Sequence record: PX974237.1
Strand: one strand, 5' to 3'
DNA length: 44,742 bases
From: a phage
The translations under genes and the position numbers were made by a program. Shown here piece by piece: positions 1,031-42,517 of this stretch; position 1 is the first letter of the stretch, and each line of letters starts with the position of its first letter. The notes below the pieces were generated by a model. That model worked only from the letters and a program-made list of their open reading frames with translations, did not search any database and had not been told where the DNA came from.

Positions 1031-1059
1031 ACTATAATAGCTAACTATTCAGGTGTCAA
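1031..1059 (-). promoter_or_regulatory. Sigma70-like promoter (TTGACA-17-TATAGT) of the replication-module family
   Basis: Minus-strand TTGACA (1059-1054), 17-bp spacer, TATAGT (1036-1031); spacer nearly identical to promoters at 3855-3883 and 42233-42261. Confidence 0.5.
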
Positions 1060-2798: not shown

Positions 2799-3317
2799 TT
2801 ATTCTTCTTCGAAATACTTGTTCTTGATTGCTGTCAGGCGTTCCAGGTACTCAACCAGGTCTTCGTCTTTAATCGCGGCAATCTTCATCTTCTTACCTGT
2901 GAACTCTTCCAGCAGTTCATCAGAATCATCGCACGCGGCATCGATAGGACCTTCATTAATTGCATCGTCGATGGCCTGAATCTGGTCACGCAGAGACTTG
3001 TAATCGACTTCTTCTTTCTCTTCTTCCGGTTCTGGCGCAGGTTCCTCTACTTTAGCTTTACGCGGCTTGCGTTTTGGCTCCTCTTCTTCTGCCGGTTTAG
3101 TGTCAACTACGTCTTCACCTTCAACCGGGATTTCTTTTGTTGCCTCTTTTACAACAGTAGGCGTGATTGTTGCAGTTTCTGCGACACCACTGTCGACGTC
3201 TTTACCATATGGCGCCGTGATAGCCTTCGGCAGTTCAGTACGGCGTGCACTGTTCGCAGCAATCAGTTCATGTGCAACTACGAAACGTTCCAGTAATTTA
3301 ATAAATTGTTCTAACAT
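2799..3317 (-). CDS. Hypothetical acidic protein (172 aa)
   Basis: ORF with Glu/Pro/Lys-rich low-complexity centre; operon context. Confidence 0.5.
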   Translation of the reverse strand: MLEQFIKLLERFVVAHELIAANSARRTELPKAITAPYGKDVDSGVAETATITPTVVKEATKEIPVEGEDVVDTKPAEEEEPKRKPRKAKVEEPAPEPEEEKEEVDYKSLRDQIQAIDDAINEGPIDAACDDSDELLEEFTGKKMKIAAIKDEDLVEYLERLTAIKNKYFEEE

Positions 3318-3320
3318 GGT

Positions 3321-3824
3321 TCATTCTCCGTGATTTTTATGGAAGTTGAGTTTTATTTCTGCTTCTTTTCTTGCGAAAACAGCATCTTCAAATTTTGAAA
3401 AGTATCCTAAGTTGTAATTTGTACCTTTTTTGTATATGTACGCATACCACTTATTTTGCTTCCCCACCCAAGACACGCCAGTTACACCCGATGTGTTGTT
3501 CTTGTGCTTTGACCTGTTGTGCATATTCGATAGGTGGCAAACTTTTCTAAGATTAGAAGCTCGGTTATTCAGCCTATCATGGTCTATATGGTCCACTTCA
3601 TCACCCTCTTCGAGTTTATCTGTAGGGTTTAGAATATCCCATATTATTCTATGCACAGGCGTAAGAACCCCGTCTAATCTTACCATTCTATAGCCGCATG
3701 TTTTTGCTAAACACCCCGCTTCATCCCCCGGCCGAACCTTCCCCTTCTTTACAGCCCATCGAAGTATGCCGGTTTCAGGTGAGTAGATGAACTGACCTGT
3801 TTTAATGTTTTTCGTTTCCTCCAT
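3321..3824 (-). CDS. HNH homing endonuclease with AP2 DNA-binding domain
   Basis: 167 aa; HIDHDRLNNRASNLR HNH motif followed by AP2-like segment GVSWVGKQNKWYAYIYKKGTNYNLGYFSKFEDAVFARKEAE. Confidence 0.8.
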   Translation of the reverse strand: MEETKNIKTGQFIYSPETGILRWAVKKGKVRPGDEAGCLAKTCGYRMVRLDGVLTPVHRIIWDILNPTDKLEEGDEVDHIDHDRLNNRASNLRKVCHLSNMHNRSKHKNNTSGVTGVSWVGKQNKWYAYIYKKGTNYNLGYFSKFEDAVFARKEAEIKLNFHKNHGE

Positions 3825-3854: not shown

Positions 3855-3883
3855 ACTATAATAGCGAACTATTCACATGTCAA
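3855..3883 (-). promoter_or_regulatory. Sigma70-like promoter (TTGACA-17-TATAGT), replication-module family
   Basis: Minus-strand TTGACA (3883-3878), 17-bp spacer, TATAGT (3860-3855); about 30 nt upstream of the HNH start. Confidence 0.5.
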
Positions 3884-3887
3884 TGGG

Positions 3888-3916
3888 CTTTTCTAAAATA
3901 ATTAATATGGTACTAT
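3888..3916 (+). promoter_or_regulatory. Candidate promoter for the XRE-type HTH gene (-10 TACTAT, weak -35)
   Basis: TACTAT at 3911-3916 followed by the conserved TCAC motif seen downstream of the early promoters; -35 is poor. Confidence 0.35.
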
Positions 3917-3947
3917 TCACATATCAACTGACTAAGGAGTAACTGAC

Positions 3948-4163
3948 ATGCAACCATCTGAACTAGGCACCCGTGTAGAACAACGCCGTAAAGAACTCGG
4001 CATCTCCCAGCGCCGTTTGGCGGCCCTGACCGGCGTTTCCCAGGGCGCGATTAACCAACTGGCACTTGGAGTAACTCAGGACGTCCGCCCGGCAACGCTG
4101 TTCAAACTGGCGGAAGTTCTGGAAGTAGACGCCAAGTGGCTGGCGTTCGGTGAAGGGGCTTAA
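3948..4163 (+). CDS. XRE-family helix-turn-helix transcriptional regulator
   Basis: 71 aa; GISQRRLAALTGVSQGAINQLALG HTH motif; RBS AAGGAG upstream. Confidence 0.75.
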   Translation: MQPSELGTRVEQRRKELGISQRRLAALTGVSQGAINQLALGVTQDVRPATLFKLAEVLEVDAKWLAFGEGA

Positions 4164-4179
4164 AGCCCCTTTCTTTTTA
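4154..4179 (+). terminator. Rho-independent terminator
   Basis: Hairpin aggggct-taa-agcccct followed by tttcttttt. Confidence 0.6.
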
Positions 4180-4180
4180 C

Positions 4181-6421
4181 CTATTCCAAATCCTCCTCTG
4201 TCACCACCAGCATCTCATTTGGTTCGTATAGTGTCTTCGGCCTTAATCTATCCCCTATTCTTTCGGGTATACGATATGTTCTCGGTACTACTTCGCCGTT
4301 AGCATCGCAACCAAGCATTAGTTCTCCATCTTTCAACATTTTATCAAGATGGGTGTTAGTCACAGAGAAGTCACCGGAACGAGCCACTATCTGCTGCTGA
4401 GTAAAACCGCGACCTGTGTCATCTGACTGTTGCAGGTCTTCCAGTGCCGAAAGTATTGACTCCTTCCTTACTTCATCCCTGCCGCGTTTAACTTCTTCCT
4501 TTACTTTTTGCTTACCTTCTTTCGTCAACCCTTCTTCCCGCTCTTTCTCCTCGTCAGTTTTGAACGGCTCGAAACCCCACGGCATCAACACAAGCGCCTT
4601 GTGTGGTTCAGGAAGGTCCAGGTTTACGATTGTGCCGTATTCTTCTGTGCCCCCCAGGAACTCAACCGCACGGTACTCTTTCGGCGGCGGAGCTTCGCGG
4701 AACTGCACAGACTCCAGCACCATGCCAACCGTTTTCTGTTGAGGACCGTGCTTAAATTTCGAGTGGTATACGTTTATTTGACGGTCGGTTGCACGTTCAA
4801 TCGTCAGTTCCACGTCGACACCCGCATACAATGCTCCACTGCCGCGGGCTTTCTTTCCGCCCTTCGGAGTATGGTGAACGACACCGACAGCGGCTTTAGT
4901 TGCATCGCGCACTTCTTTCAGGATGGCGATAACTTTACCCATACCGATTGTCGTTGATGAACTGTTCTCGTCGAACTTATCAATCGTCAGGGCCAGCGTC
5001 TGGTTAAGGGTGTCGAAGGCAACCATGCCAATAGGTTCATCCCCTGCGGTTTCGCGCATCCTGCGGATTAGAGCTGGAATTTTTTTATCACCATGCGTAG
5101 CGAGTATTTCGCCTATATCGATGACATGTACATAATCTTTACCTTCCTCGCCATATTTAGCCGCGAGCGCATCGATACGTGTGCGTGTAGCTGCACCACC
5201 TTCACCATCAATATAGAAATGGTGGCAACGCTGGGTATCCGCCCCCGCAAACCTGTACCCGGCGGCGCTGAGGTACATCATCCCCAGCGTATAGAACGAT
5301 TTGTACGTGCCAGACTCACCGACGATATCCCAGATACAATCCGACGGCATGTACCCCTCAACGACGAAATCAGCCTTTACCGGCTCCGGTAACTCGTCCT
5401 CCTCTGAGTCCTCGTCGTCTTCCAGGTCGTCGAGGCTGCAAGTTACAGGCTCCTCGTTCTCTGTGCGGTGCAGTTCTTCAATCTCTTCATCCGGTAAATC
5501 AGGCAGAGCCGCACGAATGCTGTTAATACTGATAGGTTGCTTGTCTACGTTAAGCTCGTCTGGCAGGCCGCACATACGCAGGGCCAAATGCTGTCGGCGG
5601 TTAAGCTCGGTGCAAGCGCCGTTGTTTGTATGCTGGCACACAAAGCGCACTTCTTTACCATCAAGCATGATGCTTGTGGAGCCTTTGCCTGTATGCAGAT
5701 GTTCGTTAGGGCATGGGACTTCGTACCCGCGCCCGGAAGATAAAGCGTCAAGGCCAAGCTCGGCTTCGCAGAAATGCGCTATATCCGCGTTAAGCCCATG
5801 CTCATCAGCGGCAAGTGTTTTAGCCTCACGCTTACGCAACCCCATCTCTTCGGCTTTCTTGATGTACCGCTCAGCACGGATAACACGCCCTTCTGTAACC
5901 GTTATCTTCGACTCTTTATGCGGCAGGTAGATAAGGCGGTTGCCGTCTTCTGTGCAGTGGTCGCGCAACGCTTCGTCTATTTCTAACTCTGCACAAATAG
6001 CACGTTGCACCATCCACGCGTCGTTAGAGTTAAACGGCGTGCGAGCTGGAACCAGAACGCGGAAAGCGTAATCTCCGTTTTTACATGCGTGCTGATGCGA
6101 TGCCGTTGTGTGCAGAATATTGAAGAACGGCGCGTTCTTGAATTTGCGTGTCAGGTCGCGGTACTGAGTACGGTTGAGATGGTCGAAATCGAACTTAACC
6201 ACACTGTCTTCCAGGATAGCGTTTTTACGGCGACCACCAACAGGCGCAATAGCTTTCTGTTTAATCTTGGCAGCGTCGTACTCTTCCTTAGTCCATGACG
6301 GGTCCACGGATAAACGCTTCGATGTATCGCAGACATACTCGACAAACTGCTCCAGCGGCATTTCACGCGCTACAGGGTTTTTATCGAATGTGTTACGCAG
6401 CGTTGCAAAAACAATATTCAT
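4181..6421 (-). CDS. Replicative primase-helicase (N-terminal primase-like domain, zinc-binding segment, C-terminal RecA-like DnaB/RepA-type ATPase)
   Basis: 746 aa; Walker A-like GESGTYKS, VHHTPKGG motif typical of RepA/DnaB-like helicases, N-terminal DFDH and SHQH motifs reminiscent of AEP primases, Cys/His cluster CPNEH...C. Confidence 0.65.
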   Translation of the reverse strand: MNIVFATLRNTFDKNPVAREMPLEQFVEYVCDTSKRLSVDPSWTKEEYDAAKIKQKAIAPVGGRRKNAILEDSVVKFDFDHLNRTQYRDLTRKFKNAPFFNILHTTASHQHACKNGDYAFRVLVPARTPFNSNDAWMVQRAICAELEIDEALRDHCTEDGNRLIYLPHKESKITVTEGRVIRAERYIKKAEEMGLRKREAKTLAADEHGLNADIAHFCEAELGLDALSSGRGYEVPCPNEHLHTGKGSTSIMLDGKEVRFVCQHTNNGACTELNRRQHLALRMCGLPDELNVDKQPISINSIRAALPDLPDEEIEELHRTENEEPVTCSLDDLEDDEDSEEDELPEPVKADFVVEGYMPSDCIWDIVGESGTYKSFYTLGMMYLSAAGYRFAGADTQRCHHFYIDGEGGAATRTRIDALAAKYGEEGKDYVHVIDIGEILATHGDKKIPALIRRMRETAGDEPIGMVAFDTLNQTLALTIDKFDENSSSTTIGMGKVIAILKEVRDATKAAVGVVHHTPKGGKKARGSGALYAGVDVELTIERATDRQINVYHSKFKHGPQQKTVGMVLESVQFREAPPPKEYRAVEFLGGTEEYGTIVNLDLPEPHKALVLMPWGFEPFKTDEEKEREEGLTKEGKQKVKEEVKRGRDEVRKESILSALEDLQQSDDTGRGFTQQQIVARSGDFSVTNTHLDKMLKDGELMLGCDANGEVVPRTYRIPERIGDRLRPKTLYEPNEMLVVTEEDLE

Positions 6422-6546
6422 TTCTTTTTCTCCGCACGTTCTAAGGCTTCCTGCATACGGCGCATTGCGCGGTTCATCTTTACCGGCGCGAAGAAATCGG
6501 CGCCGTGTTTCTGTCGGCGCAGCTGTGGAACTATTAACTTCGTCAT
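6418..6546 (-). CDS. Small basic protein (42 aa), translationally coupled to primase-helicase
   Basis: ATG with AAGGA RBS 8 nt upstream; stop overlaps primase-helicase ATG (ATGA). Confidence 0.3.
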   Translation of the reverse strand: MTKLIVPQLRRQKHGADFFAPVKMNRAMRRMQEALERAEKKK

Positions 6547-6615
6547 TGTATAATCCTTGTGCTTACTTTGATGATTTGTGCTTTGGCCCCGACGTTCTTG
6601 CGTTGGGGTTTCTTT

Positions 6616-6906
6616 TTACCGTTTAGCCAACCCTTCCAGCAAATTTTTATACTCTTCAAAATATTCCTCGACCAAATCATCGCCGAAATAGAAGTCGATA
6701 TACTCGAGATTATCTCTTACGTTAAGCGATGCCGACATGGTGCTTAGTTGGCGTAAGCTAATTAGCTTCATTTCTGTTTCTACGCAGAAAGGCCGGTAGG
6801 TATCAAGATGGCAAGAGATATTGAAGCATAAAGCGAACTCTCCGGCCACGGAGTGAACCATATACACTTCGTTTTCTGCTTTATTGTGGAAAATTACGCC
6901 TTTCAT
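6616..6906 (-). CDS. Hypothetical protein (96 aa)
   Basis: ORF; start overlaps stop of upstream HTH gene. Confidence 0.4.
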   Translation of the reverse strand: MKGVIFHNKAENEVYMVHSVAGEFALCFNISCHLDTYRPFCVETEMKLISLRQLSTMSASLNVRDNLEYIDFYFGDDLVEEYFEEYKNLLEGLAKR

Positions 6907-7085
6907 TTCACGTTCTCCTTAATCCATGCTTCGACTTTATTACGGTCAAATGTTCCCGGTAAACGGCGGCCCATAACCTTAATACAGCAGTCAGGGAATT
7001 TGCCGCTGCGCAACCAGTTATTAATGGTCTGACGTGTCACCCCGATACGTTCAGCTACTTCATTCTGCGTCATATAATGCGACAT
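6903..7085 (-). CDS. Small HTH DNA-binding protein (putative transcriptional regulator)
   Basis: Start placed at internal ATG (7085-7083) with AGGAGAT RBS; MSHYMTQNEVAERIGVTRQTINNWLRSGKFP helix-turn-helix; divergent from the early operon. Confidence 0.55.
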   Translation of the reverse strand: MSHYMTQNEVAERIGVTRQTINNWLRSGKFPDCCIKVMGRRLPGTFDRNKVEAWIKENVK

Positions 7086-7116
7086 TTTTATATCTCCTGT
7101 TTGTTTGGTGAAACTG

Positions 7117-7145
7117 AGTATAGGATAGCGGGAATGTAAAAGCAA
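7117..7145 (-). promoter_or_regulatory. Sigma70-like promoter (TTGCTT-17-TATACT) for the leftward HTH operon
   Basis: Minus-strand -35 at 7145-7140 and -10 at 7122-7117 with 17-bp spacer. Confidence 0.45.
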
Positions 7146-7182
7146 CCAATCTCTGTAATATTTAATCTTTACAAAAATGTTA

Positions 7183-7212
7183 TTGAAAGTTCTTGACACA
7201 TGTTTGTATAAT
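7183..7212 (+). promoter_or_regulatory. Strong sigma70-like promoter (TTGAAA-18-TATAAT)
   Basis: TTGAAA at 7183-7188, TATAAT at 7207-7212. Confidence 0.5.
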
Positions 7213-7237
7213 GGTTTTGGGACTTGTATATATTACG

Positions 7238-7274
7238 GAGTTGACGAACCCTCCCCGAGGGATTCGTCAACTCC
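7238..7274 (+). promoter_or_regulatory. Long perfect inverted repeat (hairpin or operator)
   Basis: ggagttgacgaaccctc-ccc-gagggattcgtcaactcc: 17-bp stem with one bulge and a 3-nt loop. Confidence 0.5.
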
Positions 7275-7411
7275 TCCCAGACAGCTGAGATGCTTGCCTT
7301 GGGGTTTATGGATAAGTGTATCTAAATCTCATTTAAAGAAGTAACCCGCTGAAATATCTACTGTTTCTTAATGTGCCGTAGATTCGCAACCGTAAAAATG
7401 TAACGATTATT

Positions 7412-7438
7412 GGGCAGGCTTAAGCCTGCCCTTTAGTT
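7412..7438 (+). terminator. Terminator-like hairpin
   Basis: gggcaggc-ttaa-gcctgccc followed by tttagtt. Confidence 0.45.
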
Positions 7439-7503: not shown

Positions 7504-7532
7504 TTGCACACCCCAACATAATAGGATACTAT
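7504..7532 (+). promoter_or_regulatory. Early promoter (TTGCAC-17-TACTAT), conserved family
   Basis: TTGCAC 7504-7509, TACTAT 7527-7532; about 38 bp near-identical to minus-strand promoters at 19051-19079 and 29089-29117. Confidence 0.55.
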
Positions 7533-7566
7533 TCACTTATCGAAACGAGACATAAGGAATTTAGAA

Positions 7567-7785
7567 ATGAACAAAGCGACCGCAAGCGTAGTTTCCGCAA
7601 TCAAACAAGTTTACGGCATCGATATTTCAGAGCGCGTAATTATCGGGAACAAGCGCAACTTCTTTACGTTAGACACCGACGGAATGGATGAAAATGATTT
7701 TGTTAACGTACAACGTTTCGCTATCGGTAAGGGGCTTCGTAATGAGCCTGCGGGTTACAAGAAATTCGCTATCTACTTTAAATAA
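7567..7785 (+). CDS. Hypothetical early protein (72 aa)
   Basis: First ORF after the early promoter; RBS AAGGAA upstream. Confidence 0.55.
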   Translation: MNKATASVVSAIKQVYGIDISERVIIGNKRNFFTLDTDGMDENDFVNVQRFAIGKGLRNEPAGYKKFAIYFK

Positions 7786-7842
7786 ACCCACGGCGCCGAA
7801 TCATGGCGCCAGTGCCGACGACTCTGAGGGAGGTTGCCGTTA

Positions 7843-7998
7843 ATGAAAATTCGAATAACTGACCGCAGGCTTATAGATTTCGGTATCTCGGTAGGTGATG
7901 TTTTTCTGGCGTTCAGCAGCAACCATTATGGTTTTATGATTGAGTACAAAGGGTCATTATTGTTCGTGTATCGGGATGAATGCGAGGTTCTGGTATGA
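7843..7998 (+). CDS. Hypothetical early protein (51 aa)
   Basis: ATG at 7843 with GAGGGAGG RBS; below the length cutoff of the ORF track. Confidence 0.4.
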   Translation: MKIRITDRRLIDFGISVGDVFLAFSSNHYGFMIEYKGSLLFVYRDECEVLV

Positions 7999-8156
7999 GA
8001 GAAGCATTCGAACGATGGGCCGTCGTCGAGGGTCTGCCGGTTAATAAGGGTTCGAAGAAAGAGTACCTGAACGTTAAGACGCGTCTCGCGTGGCGGGCGT
8101 GGAAAGCTGGTGCGAATGTAATGGCTGGCGCATTTGAGAAGAGAGGCGATTTATGA
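7995..8156 (+). CDS. Hypothetical early protein (53 aa)
   Basis: ATGA start-stop overlap with upstream gene; MREAFERWAVVEGLPVNKG... Confidence 0.4.
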   Translation: MREAFERWAVVEGLPVNKGSKKEYLNVKTRLAWRAWKAGANVMAGAFEKRGDL

Positions 8157-8332
8157 GCAAGTGGATTAAGTGTAGTGAGCGGATGCCTAAATATGGGGAG
8201 TATGTCATTGTCTATGTCCGCGCCGGGTACAGCTATATAGCAAGATACAACGGTGACTTTGTCTGTGATGAATATGTTAAGTGCGCCGGGGTGACCCACT
8301 GGATGCCGTTACCCGAGCCGCCGGAAGTGTGA
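8153..8332 (+). CDS. DUF551-like phage protein (59 aa)
   Basis: MSKWIKCSERMPKYGEYVIV...VTHWMPLPEPPEV matches the DUF551 signature (W-x-C-x-ER-P, THWMPLP). Confidence 0.5.
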   Translation: MSKWIKCSERMPKYGEYVIVYVRAGYSYIARYNGDFVCDEYVKCAGVTHWMPLPEPPEV

Positions 8333-8479
8333 TGTTCAATAGTTTGGGATTTTACTGAGTGACTTACGCTGCTACACAGCAGCGTATCATTTTTCTCATT
8401 TTTGTTCTATTTCACCAAACGCAACAATCGAAGCGACTATTGCAGGAGATGCAACAATACAAACACCAATAAAATTTAC

Positions 8480-8508
8480 TTGCACACTAAGATAGAATAG
8501 GCTACTAT
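8480..8508 (+). promoter_or_regulatory. Early promoter (TTGCAC-17-TACTAT)
   Basis: TTGCAC 8480-8485, TACTAT 8503-8508, then conserved TCAtTTAC motif. Confidence 0.5.
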
Positions 8509-8539
8509 TCATTTACACGAACGAGAGGAGAGACAGAAG

Positions 8540-11056: not shown

Positions 11057-11142
11057 ATCTATTTTCTGTAATGACTAGTTGACTATTACCTACGACCCTA
11101 TTATATTTACTCCATCGACAACGAGAACGGAGTAGAGAGAAG

Positions 11143-13409: not shown

Positions 13410-14656
13410 GTATTCAGCTATCCGCACCACAGGCACTGTTCCTGAATTGCGATAACAAATACAAGGCCTATGTCGGAGGCTTCGGTAGCGGCAAGACATT
13501 TGTCGGCTGTCTCGACCTGCTTACGTTCATGCTCCGGAACCCGGGTACCCGCCTGGGCTACTTCGGCCCCACCTACCCGGCTATCCGCGACATCTTCTAC
13601 CCGACATTCGAGGAAGCGGCTAACCTCCTCGGCCTCGATGTGCTGGTTAAATCTGGCGACAAAGAAGTCGTGGTCACTCGCGGTAAGACGGTGCTCGGAA
13701 CTGTTATCTGCCGCTCGATGGATAACCCCGGCTCGATAGTCGGCTTCAAAATCGCGGCTGCGGTCGTGGATGAGCTGGACGTATTGAGCCGTGAGAAAGC
13801 CGAGCTGGCGTGGAACAAAATCGTAGCCCGCATGCGTCTGGTTATCCCGGAGGTAATTAACCACATCTCCGTCACCACGACTCCGGAAGGGTTCAAGTTC
13901 GTTTACGCCAAGTTCAAGGAGAACCCGACGCCGAGTTACTCAATGGTGCAGGCGTCCACTCACGAGAACGCCAGATTCCTGCCGCCGGATTACATTAGCT
14001 CGCTGACTGAGACTTACCCGGCGCAACTGATTAACGCGTATCTGAACGGTGAGTTTGTCAACCTGACATCCGGAAGCGTGTATTACGCATACGACCGACG
14101 CAAGCACCGCAGCAAAGAGACAATTCAACCGGGCGACACGCTGTACATCGGGCAGGACTTCAACGTTACGAAGAACGCCAGCGCCGTGTATGTGCAGCGT
14201 AAAGATGGATGGCACGCGGTTGCAGAACTGAAGGGCCTGTTCGATACGCCGGACACCGTGCGCGTAATTACCGAGAAGTGGAAGTCACAAGGCCACCGCA
14301 TCGTCGTTTACCCCGACGCTAGCGGCAAGAACCGTAAGACAAACTCGGCGTCAATCTCTGATATTGCATTACTCCAGCAGGCGGGTTTCGATGTTCGCGC
14401 TAAATCAGCCAACCCCCCGGTTAAAGACCGCGTTTTAGCCGTGAACACCGCGCTGGAAAAAGGTAAGCTGTGGGTTAATGACCACTTATGTCCTGAGATA
14501 GCCAAGACGCTGGAACAGCAGGCATACGACGATAACGGAGAGCCGGCTAAAGACGGCGTCATTGACCATATGGCTGATGCTCTCGGCTATCCTGTAGTTT
14601 ATGAGATGCCGGTGGTTAAACCAGTAATCAACATCCCGGTGACTTTCGCACTTTAA
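13406..14656 (+). CDS. Terminase large subunit
   Basis: 416 aa; Walker A GGFGSGKT, Walker B-like VVDELD, C-terminal nuclease-like region. Confidence 0.85.
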   Translation: MSIQLSAPQALFLNCDNKYKAYVGGFGSGKTFVGCLDLLTFMLRNPGTRLGYFGPTYPAIRDIFYPTFEEAANLLGLDVLVKSGDKEVVVTRGKTVLGTVICRSMDNPGSIVGFKIAAAVVDELDVLSREKAELAWNKIVARMRLVIPEVINHISVTTTPEGFKFVYAKFKENPTPSYSMVQASTHENARFLPPDYISSLTETYPAQLINAYLNGEFVNLTSGSVYYAYDRRKHRSKETIQPGDTLYIGQDFNVTKNASAVYVQRKDGWHAVAELKGLFDTPDTVRVITEKWKSQGHRIVVYPDASGKNRKTNSASISDIALLQQAGFDVRAKSANPPVKDRVLAVNTALEKGKLWVNDHLCPEIAKTLEQQAYDDNGEPAKDGVIDHMADALGYPVVYEMPVVKPVINIPVTFAL

Positions 14657-14668
14657 GAGGATTATTAA

Positions 14669-16138
14669 ATGTTAACTATGAACGGTCAGAATCAGGGTGT
14701 TAAGACAAAACACCGGGAATGGCTGCATCACTTCGATAAATGGCAGAAGGTACGCCACGCGCTGGAAGGCGACCTTATTCGCTATCTGCGCAACGTCGGG
14801 AAGAACGAACCTGACCCGACCTACGCAGCACAGCGACAGGAAGAATACGAGAACGGCGCTATCTGCTACAATTTCACCAAACGCACGCTGGCGGGGATGA
14901 CGGGGTCAGTGATGCGCAAAGACCCTGAGCAGATTATCCCGCCTGAACTTGAGTACCTGTTGCACAACGCTGACGGTTCGGGTGTAGGGCTGTGGCAGCA
15001 CGCGCAGGATACGTTAATGGAGATTGACTCGATAGGACGCGGTGGGTTGCTGGTGGATGCCCCGGAAACAGCCGCAGCAACGGCGGCAGAGCAGAACGCG
15101 GGATTATTAAACCCGGTAATCGCATTCTATACCGCGGAGAACATTATCAACTGGAGACTCACCCGCATCGGTTCAGTGAACCGCGTGACGATGGTTGTAT
15201 TGCGTGAGGCATGGGAATACTCGGAACCAGGCGCTGAGTTTGAAACAAAATTCGGCGAGCAATACCGCGTCCTTGACCTGATTGACGGTCGCTACCGCCA
15301 GCGAATCTATCGCTTCGATGCCGAAGGTGGCGCTCAGGATGATGTAATCGAAATATTCCCGGAACTTGGCGAACAGTTACGGGGCAAAATCCCGTTCACG
15401 TTCATTGGGGCAAGCAACAACGATGCGACCATTGATGATGCACCTTTGCTGCCGTTAGCTGAGCTTAATATCGGGCATTTCCGCAACAGCGCGGACAACG
15501 AGGAATCCAGCTTCGTTGTAGGCCAGCCTACTCTGTTCATCGCCCCTGGCGAGAACATGAGCATGGAACAGTGGAAAGAAGCCAACCCTCACGGCGTGCG
15601 CATGGGGTCGCGTTCGGGCCATAACATCGGTTACGGCGGCAATGCATTTCTTGTTCAGGCAGGAGAGAACAACCTCGCCAAACAGAATATGCTGGATAAA
15701 GAGAATCAGGCCATTCAGATTGGTGCGCAGCTTATCACCCCGACGCAGCAAATCACCGCCGAATCCGCCCGCCTGCAACGTGGCGCGGATACGTCTGTTA
15801 TGGCGACAATCGCACGTAACGTAAGTATGGCGTATACCGATGCATTGCGCTGGGTAGCGGCGATGCTAGGGTTGCGCGAAGACACAGAGATTGAATTCAA
15901 GCTGAACATGGAGTTCTTCCTGCAACCGATGACAGCTCAGGACCGCGCTCAGTGGATGGCGGACATTAACGCAGGCCTGCTACCAGCTACTGCTTACTAC
16001 GCCGCGTTGCGTAAGGCTGGCGTAACCGACTGGACCGATGAGGACATTCAGAACGCTATTGGGGACGCACCGCTGCCGTTGGGTGCGGTTGCTCAGGTAG
16101 CAGGAGAAATTCCGCAGTCCGCGCAACAACAGGAGTAA
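14669..16138 (+). CDS. Portal protein
   Basis: 489 aa ORF immediately after terminase with AAGAGGA RBS; size and position typical of portal. Confidence 0.65.
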   Translation: MLTMNGQNQGVKTKHREWLHHFDKWQKVRHALEGDLIRYLRNVGKNEPDPTYAAQRQEEYENGAICYNFTKRTLAGMTGSVMRKDPEQIIPPELEYLLHNADGSGVGLWQHAQDTLMEIDSIGRGGLLVDAPETAAATAAEQNAGLLNPVIAFYTAENIINWRLTRIGSVNRVTMVVLREAWEYSEPGAEFETKFGEQYRVLDLIDGRYRQRIYRFDAEGGAQDDVIEIFPELGEQLRGKIPFTFIGASNNDATIDDAPLLPLAELNIGHFRNSADNEESSFVVGQPTLFIAPGENMSMEQWKEANPHGVRMGSRSGHNIGYGGNAFLVQAGENNLAKQNMLDKENQAIQIGAQLITPTQQITAESARLQRGADTSVMATIARNVSMAYTDALRWVAAMLGLREDTEIEFKLNMEFFLQPMTAQDRAQWMADINAGLLPATAYYAALRKAGVTDWTDEDIQNAIGDAPLPLGAVAQVAGEIPQSAQQQE

Positions 16139-16144
16139 ATAGAA

Positions 16145-16170
16145 AGGCCCCGCTAGGGGCCTTAGTTTTA
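16145..16170. terminator. Bidirectional hairpin terminator between portal (+) and KilA-N gene (-)
   Basis: aggcccc-gcta-ggggcct flanked by T-rich sequence on both strands. Confidence 0.5.
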
Positions 16171-16821
16171 ACGTATATTAGCCGCACATTTACGCACAAC
16201 CCGAGGTATCGCCTCTTTCAGTTCACCCCATGTATTAACGGCCTCCATGTCAAGAAGCGTCACCAGAGCTTTCTGGATGTCACTTCGCAACTGATTGGTC
16301 TTCGCATCCTGAGAGTCCCATGTATCGAAACCCGTTACGTCGCGGATATCTACGGATTCCTTTACCGCTTTAGCCACCTGTATGAAGTGCCCACTGTGGC
16401 CAATTCTTCCCTCCGTGCGCTCGATCATTCGACTAACGGCAGCGTTAAGCTCGACAAAGCTCACCGCGCCAATGTTTCGTAGTTCTACCTGCCGTTGTGT
16501 GATAAAGCGGTCGATAACGAGGAAATGGAAATAGGCGCTGTATTGCTCAGCAATATATACTGCCAGATGGAGACATGCAAAGGTGCGACCGTTTCGGCCT
16601 TTCGTCGCCCTTATGGCATTCTCGATTCCGAGTTGTTTTTCGCATTCCTCCTTGAAAATCTTGAAGCCATCCGTTGCCATGACCTGGCGAAGCTCTCTGG
16701 TCCCCATGCCGTTGTCTAAACGCCAACGGTTCATCTGGTCAACCAGCTCGTTTACGTTAATAAAGTTTTCACGGTCAAAAGTGATTTCTCCATAAGGGAA
16801 CTCTAATGTTTGCAGTTTCAT
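16168..16821 (-). CDS. KilA-N domain protein
   Basis: 217 aa; N-terminal FINVNELV...GTRELR...RTFACLHLAVYIAEQYSAYFHFLV fits the KilA-N/APSES pattern; AGGAGAAA RBS. Confidence 0.6.
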   Translation of the reverse strand: MKLQTLEFPYGEITFDRENFINVNELVDQMNRWRLDNGMGTRELRQVMATDGFKIFKEECEKQLGIENAIRATKGRNGRTFACLHLAVYIAEQYSAYFHFLVIDRFITQRQVELRNIGAVSFVELNAAVSRMIERTEGRIGHSGHFIQVAKAVKESVDIRDVTGFDTWDSQDAKTNQLRSDIQKALVTLLDMEAVNTWGELKEAIPRVVRKCAANIR

Positions 16822-16848: not shown

Positions 16849-16878
16849 TTAAATTCTACATTCAAATGTAGAATTTAA
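16849..16878. promoter_or_regulatory. 30-bp perfect palindrome (candidate operator) in the KilA-N promoter region
   Basis: ttaaattctacatt-ca-aatgtagaatttaa; overlaps a TTGATT-18-TAGAAT minus-strand promoter. Confidence 0.55.
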
Positions 16879-18468: not shown

Positions 18469-18493
18469 TAAAAAGCCGGAATGATAAAAAGCC
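18462..18493. repeat. Tandem 16-bp direct repeat (gccggaatgataaaaa x2) across a stop codon
   Basis: Exact duplication seen at 18462-18477 and 18478-18493. Confidence 0.9.
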
Positions 18494-18516
18494 CCGCTAT
18501 GGGGCTTTATTTTTAT
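18486..18516. terminator. Bidirectional rho-independent terminator
   Basis: agcccc-gctat-ggggct with T runs on both sides. Confidence 0.7.
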
Positions 18517-19023: not shown

Positions 19024-19050
19024 GACGGCCTCCCCGGTTCGATAGAATGA

Positions 19051-19079
19051 ATAGTACCCTATTATATTGGGGTGCGCAA
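19051..19079 (-). promoter_or_regulatory. Early-family promoter (TTGCGC-17-TACTAT) driving the membrane peptide and lipoprotein
   Basis: Minus-strand -35 at 19079-19074, -10 at 19056-19051; spacer accccaatataataggg nearly identical to promoter at 7504-7532. Confidence 0.55.
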
Positions 19080-19145
19080 ACTATTTGTTTATGTATTCCG
19101 GTTATTCCACTCAATTGTAAATGTTGGAATAAACTATTCGAATAG

Positions 19146-19174
19146 TTGACTTTTCACCAAAAATGTGCTAAGCT
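19146..19174 (+). promoter_or_regulatory. Candidate promoter (TTGACT-17-TAAGCT with TG extended -10)
   Basis: TTGACT 19146-19151; TGcTAAGCT 19166-19174. Confidence 0.35.
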
Positions 19175-19354
19175 CCACCTGAGCTTGTGAAGTATGAACA
19201 AGCGACCGCGGCGCGGGCAGGTAACGGAGCGGGACGTAAGTCCTGAGTGTAGTTACGCTGACGCGTTCGGAAGGGCCATACTCTATTGCTTGTGTAAAAA
19301 GTAACTGGTTTACTGAGATTACGCCGTTTCTATGTTTAAATGATAAGGACTAGC

Positions 19355-19381
19355 GCCCCGCTTTAAGGCGGGGCTTTACTT
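19355..19381 (+). terminator. GC-rich hairpin with weak T tract just upstream of the spanin RBS (terminator or attenuator)
   Basis: gccccgc-tttaag-gcggggc followed by tttactt. Confidence 0.35.
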
Positions 19382-26624: not shown

Positions 26625-26650
26625 AAGGCCCCTTTCGGGGCCTTTTTCTT
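26625..26650. terminator. Bidirectional rho-independent terminator (tail tube + / kinase -)
   Basis: aaggcccc-tttc-ggggcctt followed by TTTTCTT. Confidence 0.7.
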
Positions 26651-27203
26651 ACAAACCTAATTTTAAAGCAATGTCTATAACGTTCGATTTAACGTCACCC
26701 GGTATGATGTAGGTGTCGTAATCTTTTACACCACCAACATCGTACAGATAGCCACGGCTATCGCCGATGAACGTATAGCCGTCACGATGGAGGCGGACGA
26801 TTCGCACGTCATGCCCCGCGGCGACGATAGGGGCAACTTCACTGGCGAATCCACCGTCGGACACTACAAAAACTTCGTCGCCGTCAGGCAAGTTTTCAGC
26901 AAGATACTTACCGAAATAATCATCGCCGAATACCGGTTTAATGAATTGCTCAGAAATGGCAATCATTAACCGGCGGCGGGACAACCCATTAAGAAAACCC
27001 TCGGGTTTTTCTTTCCGCGCCCGGTCGTCGTAGCCGTCGAGAAATTCGTGGTAAGCATCCTGGCCTAACGCTGCCAAAGCAATATTGAACATTGGATTCT
27101 TGAAACTGGTAGTTCCTTTCGCAAAGCCCATTTCTACCAGCGCCATAGCAAGCGTGTCTTTCCCGCAACCCGCAGGGCCATTAAGAATAATTACCTTAGC
27201 CAT
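26649..27203 (-). CDS. P-loop nucleotide kinase (dNMP-kinase-like; possibly polynucleotide 5'-kinase)
   Basis: 184 aa; Walker A GPAGCGKDT and RRLM segment as recalled from T4 gp1 dNMP kinase. Confidence 0.6.
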   Translation of the reverse strand: MAKVIILNGPAGCGKDTLAMALVEMGFAKGTTSFKNPMFNIALAALGQDAYHEFLDGYDDRARKEKPEGFLNGLSRRRLMIAISEQFIKPVFGDDYFGKYLAENLPDGDEVFVVSDGGFASEVAPIVAAGHDVRIVRLHRDGYTFIGDSRGYLYDVGGVKDYDTYIIPGDVKSNVIDIALKLGL

Positions 27204-27691
27204 TATTTATCGCTCCCGTGTGGTTTTAAGTGTGTAGAGTTCCCGTTACAGTCGTATTCGGTAACTGCGTGTACGGTTATGCCGAGGTCACGGAAATGCT
27301 TTATTACCGCTGGAGAGTCGTCGAACGCACACAAGATTCTTTCCAGTCCGAAAGCACGCAACACCTCTTCTTTAATTACGATGTCTTTTCTGTTGTCGTG
27401 TTTGCTGCGCATGATTAGCGTGTCAAACCTAACGTTATTCTCTCGTAACCATTCGCGAGTCTCCTCCTCAGCGTCATCACTTCGCCCGGTAAGGATAATT
27501 ATAGTAAGTCCGGAATGCCACAGTACGCTACACAAATGGATATTGTCGTATATCGGAGCGTCATCTTTGCAGGCCATGTTAAATGGCTTCCACGCCCACG
27601 TTTCTCCGTAGTTATCTTTTGGTAACAGGTGTAAGCGATGGGTACCGTCAGCCAATGTCCCGTCTAAATCGAAAATTACAATATCTTTCAT
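27203..27691 (-). CDS. HAD-superfamily phosphatase resembling the 3'-phosphatase domain of polynucleotide kinase-phosphatase
   Basis: 162 aa; VIFDLDGTLA motif I, IILTGR motif II, DNRKDIVIKEEV...FDDSPAV motif III/IV, closely resembling my recollection of the T4 PseT phosphatase domain. Confidence 0.65.
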   Translation of the reverse strand: MKDIVIFDLDGTLADGTHRLHLLPKDNYGETWAWKPFNMACKDDAPIYDNIHLCSVLWHSGLTIIILTGRSDDAEEETREWLRENNVRFDTLIMRSKHDNRKDIVIKEEVLRAFGLERILCAFDDSPAVIKHFRDLGITVHAVTEYDCNGNSTHLKPHGSDK

Positions 27692-28818
27692 CCCAGCATC
27701 TCCGGTGAAATAGTTAAACGTGCGACCTCGCCATATTCGGCGCTATAAGTAATTACATTTGCACTGCGGCCCGACATCCATCCGCCGCGAGAGGCGTAGG
27801 CGTCTTTAGCCGCTAAGGTGCGGTGTTGCTCAACAATCATGTTACGGCTTTCTACAATCTTCTGGTGGTGCAGATGGCCTACGTGGGCGTAGCTGTAAAC
27901 ACTCTCGCCGAACGCTTTACGGAACTTGGCAATCATAACCGGTTCGATAGCGTCGAATCGTGCTTTATGCCCGTGATGGAAGAACAGCGTCGTTTTGCCG
28001 TGTTGCACCATCTTGTAAACATCCGGCGACGTATCAACAATCACTCGGCTGTCGTTTGAGTATAAAACCGTGAACATTTCAGCAAGCCATACGGAGCCAA
28101 CAGGGTCGTGGTTACCTTGAACGATTAAAAGTTTTACTGTGTGATGCTTAACCAGCGCCATATCAACAACACGGCGGACCATACGAATCATGTAACGTAC
28201 CAGTTTCTGATAGCGAGTATCCGCATCTAATACATGGCGCGACTCGGGGGTAACGGCATCAAGACTATCGAAGTGTGCGAAGTCCCCAAGCAGGTTAATA
28301 ACTCCTGTTCCTGCATCCGGTGCTTTCTGAAACGCCGCGTCGAACCACCGAGAGAACAGGTCTTCTGCAATCTTCATGTCCCAGTCGTCGCCGCTCTCAT
28401 CGGCCCATGCCAGCATACCGAGATGGAAATCAGATACAGTGTAAAGATTGAGTAGCTTGTCGTCACGTTTGGCGCGCGCCGCTTTAACAGGCGCAACGGG
28501 CGTAATCTCTGACTTCATGCCCTCTATTACGGCTTTCATCAATTCAACCTGACGTTCGGCGTCGGTATCAGTCTTAACCCATTGCAACTTAGTGTTGCCG
28601 AACTCGTCCACAAGTGACGACGTTCCTTTAATCTTGTAACCGTCTGGTACAAGGTGACTAACGTCGCGCCCGTGGCCTACGCCTTTCTTAGCCAGCTTCG
28701 CTTTACGGATACGAATAACGCGGTCTGAGATGCCGTATTTACGGGCGATATCTACATTCTTCATACCGGCGTTCAATTCTTCCTGCAACTGTTCGTCGGT
28801 TATTTTCTTCCGGGCCAT
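27688..28818 (-). CDS. Calcineurin-like metallophosphoesterase with N-terminal HTH domain
   Basis: 376 aa; phosphoesterase motifs DFH, GDFAHFD, GNHD, HHGH, GHLHH; N-terminal 50 aa KNVDIARKYGISDRVIRIRKAK looks like an HTH. Confidence 0.7.
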   Translation of the reverse strand: MARKKITDEQLQEELNAGMKNVDIARKYGISDRVIRIRKAKLAKKGVGHGRDVSHLVPDGYKIKGTSSLVDEFGNTKLQWVKTDTDAERQVELMKAVIEGMKSEITPVAPVKAARAKRDDKLLNLYTVSDFHLGMLAWADESGDDWDMKIAEDLFSRWFDAAFQKAPDAGTGVINLLGDFAHFDSLDAVTPESRHVLDADTRYQKLVRYMIRMVRRVVDMALVKHHTVKLLIVQGNHDPVGSVWLAEMFTVLYSNDSRVIVDTSPDVYKMVQHGKTTLFFHHGHKARFDAIEPVMIAKFRKAFGESVYSYAHVGHLHHQKIVESRNMIVEQHRTLAAKDAYASRGGWMSGRSANVITYSAEYGEVARLTISPEMLG

Positions 28819-29047: not shown

Positions 29048-29088
29048 GGTGTAGCTCCTGTTTGGGATAACATCGTTGGTGTAAGTGA

Positions 29089-29117
29089 ATAGTACACTAT
29101 TATATTGGGGTGTGCAA
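29089..29117 (-). promoter_or_regulatory. Early-family promoter (TTGCAC-17-TACTAT) driving the imm / phosphoesterase / phosphatase / kinase cassette
   Basis: Minus-strand -35 at 29117-29112, -10 at 29094-29089; spacer accccaatataatagtg nearly identical to 7504-7532 and 19051-19079. Confidence 0.55.
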
Positions 29118-33074: not shown

Positions 33075-34466
33075 ATGTCTTCTTTGAAATTTCCAGCAAG
33101 TTTAAAGCCGGTGGTATCAAAAGGCTACTCAATGACCAGACGTAACAACGTCTGGAGGGTCGATTTAGCCGGTGGCGGGGTGCGTCAGGGCCGTGACACA
33201 TATTACGACGTGTTCCCGGTGAGCGTAACCCTGATCACATCCGCAATGGGGCGGCAGGCGTTTCTGTCGTTCCTCGAAAAAGTAGACGGTGGTGCGTCAA
33301 GTTTCTGGATGGCCCACGATTTCGGCATGGGTATCGAGGATTACCAGGTAACCATCACGTCCACCATCGCCGAGTCCACAGAAGATGGGATTAACTGGAC
33401 AATCACTTTCACAGCAACCGCTGAGAAATCCCCGTTCCAGGATGAAGACAACCAGTGCCTGATTAACAATCTGCCAGATTTGTACGGTTGCTATGGAGAT
33501 TGCCTCGGTGGTTTCCTGAAAGCATATGGCATTTACGAAACGACGTTCCCTCGCATCTGGAGCAATGAAGGCCCAGCAGGACACCCGCCGATTAACCTTC
33601 TGGCGTCGACTCTTGATAGCCGCATTGTGTATGACGGACCACAGGTTTACTACATCAACCGAAACGGCAATCTTGTGCAGTCCGCCGCCAATGAATGGCC
33701 TTTAACATTTATTGATGGTGTTGCTGCAGGTCGTGTGCCGCCGGAAAATATCCGCGTTAATTTCGCAGTAAATAACGCGAACATATCCAGCGCTGCATGG
33801 GTGAAGATTAATATGTCTGTTTCTGAATATGACACCATCACCGGAGGGTATGCCCTAACCCCGACCACAACAAAGGGCTCGCACAATTTAAACCAAACTG
33901 TGACAAACACGACGCACCAGGTAGGTAGTTTGGTGACAGTTAGTTACATGGTCAAGGCTAACGGCTATGATTTTTTCCGCGTAAGAGTAGCTGACAGTTT
34001 AGGCTTCCTGGGGGATGTAGTAATAAACTCTACTTCAGGGGAGGTTGTTAGCGGCGGTAGTGGGTCAACAGTACAAAATCTTGGAGGAGGACTGTTCCGG
34101 GTTACCGAAACAGTAACAATACGGGCCGGGGGGACAACAAGTATACTTATGCAGTGTTTTGTGGACGCTGACGGGTTGAAGTCAACCTATCCGGGAGACG
34201 GGGTCAGCGGTGCGGTTATTTTGCTGCCACAAATAGAAAAATCTGCGATAGCTACATCACCGATAGTAACCGAATCGTCACCGGTAACCCGCGCGACGGC
34301 ATCCGCAAAAGTAGCAATGAACGGTGCGACAAGCATCGACATCACCTATTCCGACGGCACTGTGGTAAACGTTCCGTCTGCTGACGGTTACGCGACTATC
34401 CCGCAAGCGGATTCTGCGTGGGGTAGTAAGTACATCACTCGTATCGACTTTAATGTGGACGGTTAA
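33075..34466 (+). CDS. Minor tail protein, lambda gpM-like N-terminal domain with long C-terminal extension
   Basis: 463 aa; first ~115 aa (FLSFLEKVDGGASSFWMAHDF) resemble gpM family; remaining ~350 aa Thr/Ser/Gly-rich. Confidence 0.45.
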   Translation: MSSLKFPASLKPVVSKGYSMTRRNNVWRVDLAGGGVRQGRDTYYDVFPVSVTLITSAMGRQAFLSFLEKVDGGASSFWMAHDFGMGIEDYQVTITSTIAESTEDGINWTITFTATAEKSPFQDEDNQCLINNLPDLYGCYGDCLGGFLKAYGIYETTFPRIWSNEGPAGHPPINLLASTLDSRIVYDGPQVYYINRNGNLVQSAANEWPLTFIDGVAAGRVPPENIRVNFAVNNANISSAAWVKINMSVSEYDTITGGYALTPTTTKGSHNLNQTVTNTTHQVGSLVTVSYMVKANGYDFFRVRVADSLGFLGDVVINSTSGEVVSGGSGSTVQNLGGGLFRVTETVTIRAGGTTSILMQCFVDADGLKSTYPGDGVSGAVILLPQIEKSAIATSPIVTESSPVTRATASAKVAMNGATSIDITYSDGTVVNVPSADGYATIPQADSAWGSKYITRIDFNVDG

Positions 34467-42229: not shown

Positions 42230-42517
42230 CTAACTATAATAGTTCGCTATTAGGTCGTCAACCTGTTTGAACGACCCGACGACAAAAACATTCGCACCAC
42301 GTTTACGCATCCGCTCATGCTCTCGTAACTGGTGTGGGTCAGGCTTCGTGCTTTCGTCTTTCTTCACCTCGACGAACCAGACGATGCCGCCCGGGAGAAT
42401 TACCAGCAGGTCGGGAGCGCCGGAACGTCCTTCGTAGGAGAGCTTGCGAACGAGGCCACCGAGGGCCTCGAATCGCTCTTTTGCGTATTTCTGTATGCGC
42501 CCCTCAGGCGTACTCAT
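42230..42517 (-). CDS. VRR-NUC domain nuclease
   Basis: 95 aa; GAPDLLVILPGGIVWFVEVKK matches the VRR-NUC PD-(D/E)XK signature. Confidence 0.7.
   Translation of the reverse strand: MSTPEGRIQKYAKERFEALGGLVRKLSYEGRSGAPDLLVILPGGIVWFVEVKKDESTKPDPHQLREHERMRKRGANVFVVGSFKQVDDLIANYYS
42233..42261 (-). promoter_or_regulatory. Sigma70-like promoter (TTGACG-17-TATAGT), replication-module family
   Basis: Minus-strand -35 at 42261-42256, -10 at 42238-42233; spacer shared with promoters at 1031-1059 and 3855-3883. Confidence 0.5.

Follow-up and report, generated by a model that had tools for sequence, protein, structure and literature searches.

Repressors of the 434 Cro type bind 14-base-pair (bp) palindromes with a variable centre. 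In other phages one repressor acts through many dispersed sites, mostly at or inside early and accessory promoters, as with the C1 operators of P1, the operator and stoperators of L5 gp71, and the conserved inverted repeats of Streptomyces phage phiC31, which go with a family of near-identical early promoters. These three repressors maintain lysogeny, and the P1 and L5 sites are asymmetric. Here we describe a family of promoter-like sites in the phage genome PX974237.1 (44,742 nucleotides (nt); "the window" denotes this whole stretch) that share a 14-bp palindrome, AATAG-N4-CTATT, probably the operator of a small phage repressor. The genome is that of a Kagunavirus; Kagunavirus and Jerseyvirus phages are often put forward for therapy and food biocontrol, and to our knowledge their gene regulation is essentially undescribed.

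The closest resemblance is to 434 Cro and to the DNA-binding domains of the 434 and P22 repressors. As in 434 operators, the palindromes of the window have conserved outer bases and a variable centre and overlap core promoter elements; the phage encodes a single-domain, five-helix HTH_3 protein of 71 amino acids (aa) whose best match in sequence and in fold is 434 Cro, and two of the sites lie in the divergent control region of its own gene. Unlike the 434 system, this one comes without a CI partner, an integrase or a lysogeny module, the divergent gene encodes an HNH endonuclease or replication functions, the sites occur in about ten promoters across the genome, the half-site is AATAG and not ACAA, and binding is here a prediction. 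It departs from the dispersed-operator regulons in its symmetric sites, its Cro-sized protein and its strictly lytic group. The controller (C) proteins of restriction-modification systems offer a third likeness, being small HTH_3 dimers (C.BclI, C.AhdI and C.Esp1396I are among the fold matches) that autoregulate through paired palindromes in their own promoter. However, they act on one promoter by activation and then repression, whereas here many promoters carry sites, in positions that would allow occlusion only.

Length and gene order match those of complete genomes of the group (41-45 kb) and identify the record as a complete, circularly permuted genome of a Kagunavirus (Guernseyvirinae). 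A 5-kb test stretch matches 446 phage records, all of Guernseyvirinae siphophages of Escherichia or Salmonella. The best matches, Kagunavirus LF7074P1 and the BASEL phages Bas70-76, are about 91% identical, and K1B4 is 89% identical across the same stretch. The literature describes the Guernseyvirinae as strictly lytic (PMC9825357, PMC7203180). The motif has already been published in relatives: as seven "phage promoters" found by PHIRE in fBC-Eco01, with the consensus tgAATAGTa-ccTATTat-T (PMC9825357), among seven PHIRE promoters listed for VB_EcoS-Golestan (PMC7203180), and as the phage-specific regulatory element TAATAGTACCCTATTATGTT of SGP-C (PMC8790156). Both the fBC-Eco01 consensus and the SGP-C element are the reverse complement of the class A core described below. 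These publications list the motif as a repeated word and no more; they do not recognise the palindrome, its registers or the sigma-70 frames, nor do they link it to the adjacent helix-turn-helix (HTH) gene, all of which is added here. Our literature searches found no mechanistic account of a Guernseyvirinae repressor or operator.

A reading of the window made from sequence without database searches (hereafter the sequence-only reading) had reported near-identical TTGCAC-N17-TACTAT modules at 7504 (+), 19079 (-) and 29117 (-). All three read as described (TTGCACACCCCAACATAATAGGATACTATTCAC at 7504-7536, TTGCGCACCCCAATATAATAGGGTACTATTCAT at 19079-19047 and TTGCACACCCCAATATAATAGTGTACTATTCAC at 29117-29085), and a whole-genome search with the 33-nt pattern TTGCACACCCCAAYATAATAGNGTACTATTCAC, allowing up to three mismatches, returned these three places with zero to two mismatches against 0.00 in 100 shuffles. 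Two further sites, 8480 and 3888, had been said to share the -10 and downstream motif. They do, the sequence TACTATTCA occurring five times (3911, 7527, 8503, and on the minus strand 19056 and 29094) against 0.28 expected. The site at 8480 also has the -35 hexamer TTGCAC, omitted in that reading, and at 3888-3916 the hexamer 17 bp upstream, CTTTTC, is no -35; an alternative promoter reading of 3888-3917 is TTCACA-16-TAAAAT at 3872-3899.

The core of what looked like a conserved spacer is the 14-bp palindrome AATAG-N4-CTATT, with an extended form ATAATAG-N4-CTATT(A/C)(T/A). Its exact form is present in seven copies against 0.02 expected (1036, 3860, 7520, 8496, 19050, 29088 and 42238), and every one of them lies within a promoter-like site 5' of a correctly oriented gene. 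One mismatch gives four further copies against 1.1 expected, and copies with two mismatches do not exceed background (13 against 15). Of the sites with one mismatch, three (3904, 11074 and 19141) are conserved at promoters of relatives; the fourth, at 6248 inside the primase gene, is probably a chance match. The promoter family as first listed was thus real as far as it went, and incomplete: the sites at 1059, 3883 and 42261 on the minus strand and at 11079 and 19146 on the plus strand had been missed. All are collected in Table 1.

Table 1. Promoter-like sites with the palindrome, candidate regulator genes and the units predicted to follow them in the window (coordinates of minus-strand elements run downwards where read 5' to 3')
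Feature	Coordinates	Strand	Elements	Predicted unit or remarks
P7504, class A promoter-operator	7504..7533	+	-35 TTGCAC 7504-7509; palindrome AATAGGATACTATT 7520-7533 containing -10 TACTAT 7527-7532	7567-8332; terminator 8365-8386
P8480, class A promoter-operator	8480..8509	+	-35 TTGCAC 8480-8485; palindrome AATAGGCTACTATT 8496-8509; -10 TACTAT 8503-8508	rightward unit; in the annotated relative fBC-Eco01 it extends through holins and endolysin
P19079, class A promoter-operator	19050..19079	-	-35 TTGCGC 19079-19074; palindrome 19050-19063	33-aa open reading frame (ORF) 19023-18922; 114-aa lipoprotein 18925-18581 (MKYIKLAVAGVVAVCLSGC); bidirectional terminator 18488-18508
P29117, class A promoter-operator	29088..29117	-	-35 TTGCAC 29117-29112; palindrome 29088-29101	Imm-like protein 29047-28856; metallophosphoesterase 28818-27688; HAD/PNKP phosphatase 27691-27203; dNMP-kinase-like protein 27203-26649; terminator 26625-26644
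HTH_3 gene control region	3888..3917	+	degenerate palindrome AATATGGTACTATT 3904-3917 over -10-like TACTAT 3911-3916	HTH_3 gene
P1059, class B promoter-operator	1031..1059	-	TTGACA 1059-1054; palindrome 1036-1049; TATAGT 1036-1031	Enc34-type single-stranded DNA (ssDNA)-binding protein gene 971-345
P3883, class B promoter-operator	3855..3883	-	TTGACA 3883-3878; 4 nt; palindrome 3860-3873; TATAGT 3860-3855	leftward operon: HNH endonuclease, 172-aa protein, 90-aa protein, DUF2800 nuclease, 67-aa protein
P42261, class B promoter-operator	42233..42261	-	TTGACG 42261-42256; palindrome 42238-42251; TATAGT 42238-42233	64-aa ORF, SNF2 helicase, Toprim-like protein
P11079, class C promoter	11074..11107	+	one-mismatch palindrome ACTAGTTGACTATT 11074-11087 overlapping -35 TTGACT 11079-11084; -10 TATATT 11102-11107	unit toward terminase genes
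P19146, class C promoter	19141..19174	+	one-mismatch palindrome AATAGTTGACTTTT 19141-19154 over -35 TTGACT 19146-19151; -10-like TAAGCT 19169-19174	36-aa ORF 19194-19304; terminator 19355-19374
HTH_3 (434-Cro-like) gene, 71 aa	3948..4163	+	terminator 4152-4172	favoured binder; monocistronic
HTH_17 (excisionase/MerR-like) gene, 60 aa	6903..7085	-		rival binder; first gene of primase/helicase operon
HTH_17 operon promoter-like site	7117..7145	-	TTGCTT 7145-7140; 17 nt; TATACT 7122-7117	HTH_17 and primase/helicase operon

We grouped the sites into three classes according to where the palindrome lies relative to the hexamers. In class A it covers the -10, in class B (TTGAC(A/G)-N4-palindrome-(T)ATAGT, all on the minus strand) it occupies the spacer beside the -10, and in class C it lies over the -35. 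Across six complete genomes the palindrome begins 10 nt after the -35 in class A, 4 nt after it in class B and 7 nt after it at position 14330 of the Jerseyvirus SETP7, and in class C it overlaps the -35 itself. The SETP7 site belongs to the Imm cassette, whose orthologue has the class A register in Kagunavirus; the palindrome is present in both. Since it occurs in at least three registers relative to the hexamers, the palindrome is an independent element. In all of these positions a bound protein would be expected to occlude RNA polymerase, as at an operator.

An information analysis points the same way; it drew on 42 Kagunavirus genomes or loci, which gave 75 class A and 62 class B sequences, each unique. 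Information peaks at the -35, at both arms of the palindrome and at the -10, and is low at the centre of the palindrome, in the spacer's C-rich part (ACCCCA) and in the flanks; the two A's immediately left of the palindrome (AnAnAATAG) are also conserved. The "conserved 17-bp spacer" of the sequence-only reading is therefore mainly an extended operator arm, and its suggestion that conservation beyond the hexamers marks a shared regulator-binding site resolves into this palindrome.

The frames around the palindrome support sigma-70-type promoter-like sites. Class B (TTGACA/G-17-TATAGT) matches the consensus at 10-11 of 12 hexamer positions and class A (TTGCAC-17-TACTAT) at seven (3/6 and 4/6); class C reads TTGACT-17-TATATT or TTGACT-17-TAAGCT. 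The sites lie 25-70 nt 5' of a ribosome-binding site and start codon, in the orientation of the gene. The sites first reported are intergenic with an A/T-rich upstream flank, at 25-40 nt from the ribosome-binding site and start codon, and P1059 and P42261 reach into the 3' end of the gene before them. Because the class A hexamers are weak, a plain consensus scan passed over them. The compiled class A copies all have TTG, but the filter by which they were collected from the six genomes required TTG at the -35 offset, so that the independent evidence for a class A promoter lies in the remaining hexamer positions, which score high in the information analysis, and in the 17-bp spacing. Class A copies also hold a second -10-like hexamer, YATAAT, 4 nt 5' of TACTAT. 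Taken as the true -10 it finds a usable -35 (ATCACA) only at 29117 and none at 7504 or 19079, and promoters on the reverse strand of class A sites (TCGATA-18-TATATT at 19039 and others) are poor and inconsistent; both candidates were rejected.

These frames bear directly on the interpretation published for fBC-Eco01, in which the seven copies that PHIRE found were assigned by the authors to a phage-encoded RNA polymerase (PMC9825357; OM272052). PHIRE finds repeated words only, and every copy is framed by -35 and -10 hexamers of sigma-70 type. A search for RNA polymerase domains found none in the ORFs of at least 416 aa or in the smaller ORFs scanned, and annotated relatives list none. The 855-aa and 463-aa ORFs have no Pfam match, and the former corresponds to tail proteins in annotated relatives. 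We consider promoters for a phage polymerase to be extremely improbable. The sites labelled as such in OM272052 include 6061-6080, 15129-15148, 27124-27143, 34223-34242, 37807-37826 and 38973-38992. Six of the seven annotated sites are orthologous to sites in the window and the seventh overlaps a terminator; as no such enzyme is encoded and the sites are sigma-70 frames with a palindrome, this annotation should be corrected.

Placement between the -35 and -10 also recalls the binding elements of the antiterminators Q and AlpA (PMC9371919), and one could suppose that a protein loaded at these sites joins RNA polymerase and reads through intrinsic terminators to give temporal control. Many terminators do lie inside co-directional gene strings of the genome, and the second -10-like YATAAT of class A is of the kind this would use. 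However, AlpA contacts DNA through residues 128-142 while its N-terminal ring enters the RNA exit channel (PMC9371919), and the HTH proteins here are single domains of only 60 and 71 aa. The AlpA element, moreover, is an asymmetric 6-bp site for one protomer that needs a fixed geometry and a downstream -10-like pause element (PMC9371919), whereas the register here varies by up to about 15 bp and the site is symmetric. Antiterminator loading is on this evidence a very improbable function.

Another account takes up the recent cassette duplication and the earliest expression class suggested in the sequence-only reading, and sees plain strong early sigma-70 promoters without a dedicated regulator. 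Duplication did clearly happen. The three class A copies are identical at 31-33 of 33 positions, and the downstream leader and ribosome-binding sequences are alike between units, AACGAGAGGAG being common to those after 3883, 7504 and 8480 and ACACCAAC to those after 29117 and 42261. The accessory cassettes of relatives arrive with the same module (fBC-Eco01 3919, K1B4 8902). Over the whole genome the leader motif AACGAG shows only slight enrichment (10 against 5.6) and is therefore treated as a trace of cassette ancestry, not as a separate element.

What is not supported is that the duplication was recent. Copy-specific variants are common to species, namely TTGCGC at the lipoprotein unit in this genome and in fBC-Eco01, and TTGCAG at the clamp-like unit in fBC-Eco01 and K1B4. 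The 36-bp module is found at 384 places in 201 phage records, whose hosts are Escherichia, Salmonella, Raoultella, Shigella or Klebsiella or which are named Kagunavirus, the range to be expected of Guernseyvirinae, and it is absent from all 5,426 E. coli genomes searched. Given variants that span species and a module so widespread in phage records, the promoter-operator-leader cassette was duplicated long ago and has been maintained by selection. The palindrome is likewise kept at orthologous Jerseyvirus promoters despite the change of register (SETP7 14330). For these comparisons relatives were taken as whole genomes from a phage collection and as loci found via the HTH_3 protein; an IMG/VR scan with ATAATAGNNTACTATT gave mostly chance matches in unrelated contigs and was dropped as a measure of conservation, which is why whole genomes and HTH_3-protein loci were used.

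Duplication without a regulator fits the remaining evidence poorly. The palindrome recurs in at least three registers and in class B and C promoters that are otherwise unlike class A. The left arm of the class A palindrome falls in a region, about -20 to -16, in which sigma-70 requires no particular bases. The class A hexamers are weak and not strong, and the module also heads replication and lysis-region units; coarse RNA-seq data do not class the genes behind the module as early. As a full explanation we therefore regard it as improbable.

Our preferred explanation, in which we place moderate confidence, is that these are host sigma-70 promoters with a built-in operator for a phage repressor, most likely the HTH_3 protein. 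The palindrome would then be a phage operator within the core of each promoter, lying over the -10 in class A (7504, 8480, 19079, 29117 and the HTH_3 gene's own promoter), beside the -10 in class B (1059, 3883, 42261) and over the -35 in class C (11079, 19146). A dimeric DNA-binding protein of the phage would occupy the sites and block RNA polymerase. Replication, lysis-region and accessory units (lipoprotein; Imm, phosphoesterase and kinase) would be damped together, and the regulator, whose own gene is placed between two sites, would limit itself. An old, selected duplication of the promoter-operator-leader cassette would in addition be reflected in the shared leader and ribosome-binding sequences and in the three class A copies that are almost identical.

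The HTH_3 protein is of the kind this would require. It matches Pfam HTH_3 at 3.9e-13 and a PHROG annotated as "transcriptional repressor", and its best solved relatives, at 1.4e-6 to 5e-6, are 434 Cro (1.4e-6) and the DNA-binding domain of the 434 repressor. A single-sequence AlphaFold model (pLDDT 82) has the five helices of the small Cro/434 fold, and Foldseek returns 434 Cro (2cro) as the top match with TM-scores of 0.77/0.84, followed by P22 C2, SinR and restriction-modification controller proteins. Its gene is flanked by two palindrome sites (3860 and 3904, in its control region), which like the others are two-fold symmetric over about 14 bp and overlap promoter elements. No integrase or CI-like domain was found among the ORFs scanned in the genome or in the annotations of relatives, and the genes divergent from HTH_3 encode the HNH endonuclease and replication and recombination functions, which is not the arrangement of a bistable switch.

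The second candidate is the 60-aa HTH_17 protein, which could be the earliest product, made from the sole operator-free promoter and acting on all the others. Several observations speak for it. The promoter-like site of its operon is conserved in relatives without the palindrome. The protein is 82-98% identical within Kagunavirus and Jerseyvirus, 82% between the two genera, which share the exact AATAG core, and it is absent from three Cornellvirus-like genomes, in which the exact palindrome is absent as well. RNA-seq of K1B4 lists its gene (008) among four early genes, the sole one named, supplements included (PMC12645636).

Comparison of the clades nevertheless favours HTH_3. The Cornellvirus-like genomes each carry 4-5 promoter-embedded pseudo-palindromes, AWTAS-N4-STAWT, against 0.5-0.7 expected for this pattern, itself derived from Cornellvirus-like promoter contexts. 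They have class B or 7-nt layouts, that is, the same design in genomes without HTH_17, where another protein must therefore bind. (A count of shared 9-mers in Cornellvirus intergenic regions gave no clear motif.) HTH_3 is found in all three clades, at more than 90% identity within Kagunavirus, about 50% in Jerseyvirus and about 42% in the Cornellvirus-like genomes, and both its recognition helix and the half-site consensus vary by clade. Kagunavirus has the helix SQGAINQ and the half-site AATAG (99%) preceded by G/T; Jerseyvirus has SQSLITH and AATAG (90%) preceded by T in 95% (TAATAG); Cornellvirus-like genomes have TQSAISH and ATTAG, AATAC or ATTAC. Small HTH_17 or excisionase-type proteins are usually monomers on direct or irregular repeats, not on symmetric 14-bp sites. 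A structure-database search gave no significant solved relative for HTH_17, and the two flanking sites are at the HTH_3 gene and not at the HTH_17 gene. HTH_3 is thus favoured because sites persist in Cornellvirus-like genomes without HTH_17 and because it is universal, compatible with a symmetric site and flanked by two of them. HTH_17 as the binder appears unlikely, though it is the strongest of the rivals considered.

Several points weigh against a repressor of this kind, and against HTH_3 in particular. For a strictly lytic phage it would be odd to have almost all promoters under a repressor, those before the lysis and packaging genes among them, and the model leaves unexplained how late genes escape it. 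The class C sites are one-mismatch matches that owe their status to conservation, and with the weak hexamers of class A the activity of those promoters is a prediction. The AATAG core is common to Kagunavirus and Jerseyvirus although four of the seven recognition-helix residues of HTH_3 differ between them; together with the 82% identity of HTH_17, the shared core would fit HTH_17 at least as well within these two genera.

A broader form of the repressor hypothesis is tentative, and we rate it at somewhat less than an even chance. In these strictly lytic siphophages, a single Cro-sized repressor with an operator in essentially every host-polymerase promoter but one, those of replication, lysis-region and accessory units and of the regulator itself included, may form a genome-wide self-limiting circuit, or else a latent immunity system. 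In the latter case a resident genome or an incoming one would be silenced, a carrier state or the exclusion of superinfecting relatives could follow, and the operator variants of the clades (AATAG, TAATAG, AWTAS) would be immunity specificities. If the preferred reading is right, about ten transcription units are controlled by a single small protein through a single 14-bp site, and the arrival of accessory cassettes with the same module is explained. It would also offer a handle for engineering, in the form of compact promoter-operator parts, the silencing or timing of payload genes, and a test of "immunity" with the protein expressed by the host. No new principle is involved, since dispersed-operator regulons and Cro-type repressors are textbook material.

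The sequence-only reading had further placed the lipoprotein pair and the phosphatase/kinase cassette in the earliest expression class. This is not borne out by the genes that follow the element, which heads the leftward replication and recombination operons (ssDNA-binding protein, DUF2800 nuclease, SNF2 helicase), the holin/endolysin unit, the unit toward the terminase genes, two minus-strand cassettes and the HTH_3 gene alike. P11079, at the head of the terminase-leading unit, is conserved in all Kagunavirus and Jerseyvirus genomes checked. The palindrome thus defines a regulon and not a time class. In K1B4, the one Kagunavirus with published RNA-seq, HTH_3 (gene 004) is classed as middle and Imm (gene 045) as late, in RNA-seq that is coarse, with gene-level classes from 5-120 min and at most 8.9% phage reads (PMC12645636). 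These data weigh little, yet they run against the earliest class, and the gene they name as early, HTH_17, is the one driven by the only operator-free promoter.

Both minus-strand cassettes had also been described as morons. For the lipoprotein pair behind P19079 this fits: it appears as a unit with its own promoter and terminator and is absent from K1ind1, and in fBC-Eco01 and K1B4 the module is found with one more cassette. The Imm/phosphoesterase cassette behind P29117 fits less well. Its Imm protein is of the superinfection-immunity type, and the cassette and its promoter are present in all genomes checked (this genome, fBC-Eco01, K1ind1, RP180 and SETP7). The distal cargo alone varies, SETP7 and fBC-Eco01 having neither phosphatase nor kinase. 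The 376-aa metallophosphoesterase of this cassette (27688-28818, -) matches the PHROG "DNA repair exonuclease" (1e-162). Its N-terminal HTH-like stretch gives a weak match (6e-4) to a "late transcriptional activator" PHROG, and the orthologue in PhiSTP1 is annotated "transcriptional regulator", so that it is a possible third regulator.

At the HTH_3 locus (compared with 3948-7199 here), the primase/helicase gene of Cornellvirus-like phages follows the HTH_3 gene in the same orientation. The primase operon of Kagunavirus and Jerseyvirus runs the opposite way and begins with an additional gene, HTH_17. The Cornellvirus-like clade is set apart from the other two by an inversion and by HTH_17 having been gained or lost. 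The HNH endonuclease gene (3321-3824, -) lies after P3883 and ahead of the first conserved gene of the leftward operon (2799-3317). This position is empty in fBC-Eco01 and K1ind1, and the gene resembles a homing-endonuclease insertion immediately downstream of the promoter. P19146 is divergent from P19079, and its short unit ends in a strong terminator ahead of a spanin-like gene (19399). The unit has a conserved counterpart in fBC-Eco01 (gp09). In the window a reversed palindrome, ACTATTCGAATAGT, lies immediately upstream.

Other repeats and hairpins were seen in the window. A perfect inverted repeat with arms of 14 nt (TTAAATTCTACATT / AATGTAGAATTTAA, 16849-16878) covers a promoter-like TTGATT-18-TAGAAT (16882-16853, -) that belongs to a KilA-N-domain gene (16168-16821), and this accessory unit apparently has a distinct operator of its own; at the KilA-N position of fBC-Eco01 and K1B4 lies another cassette, whose promoter is of class A. 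Between P7504 and the promoter of HTH_17, the 300-bp spacer holds a hairpin with a 15-bp stem (GGAGTTGACGAACCC ... GGATTCGTCAACTCC, 7237-7274), beside a 55-aa ORF (7177-7344) and a terminator (7412-7431). Finally, the 10-mer CAACGGCAAC is repeated on both strands, for the most part within genes: it has eight exact copies, and 26 places match it when one mismatch is allowed, against 3.75 expected (for example at 2277, 7482, 23559, 31770 and 42109 on the plus strand and 18819, 24439 and 43158 on the minus strand). One copy lies just 5' of P7504, and CACAACGGCA is also repeated six times in the Jerseyvirus SETP7.

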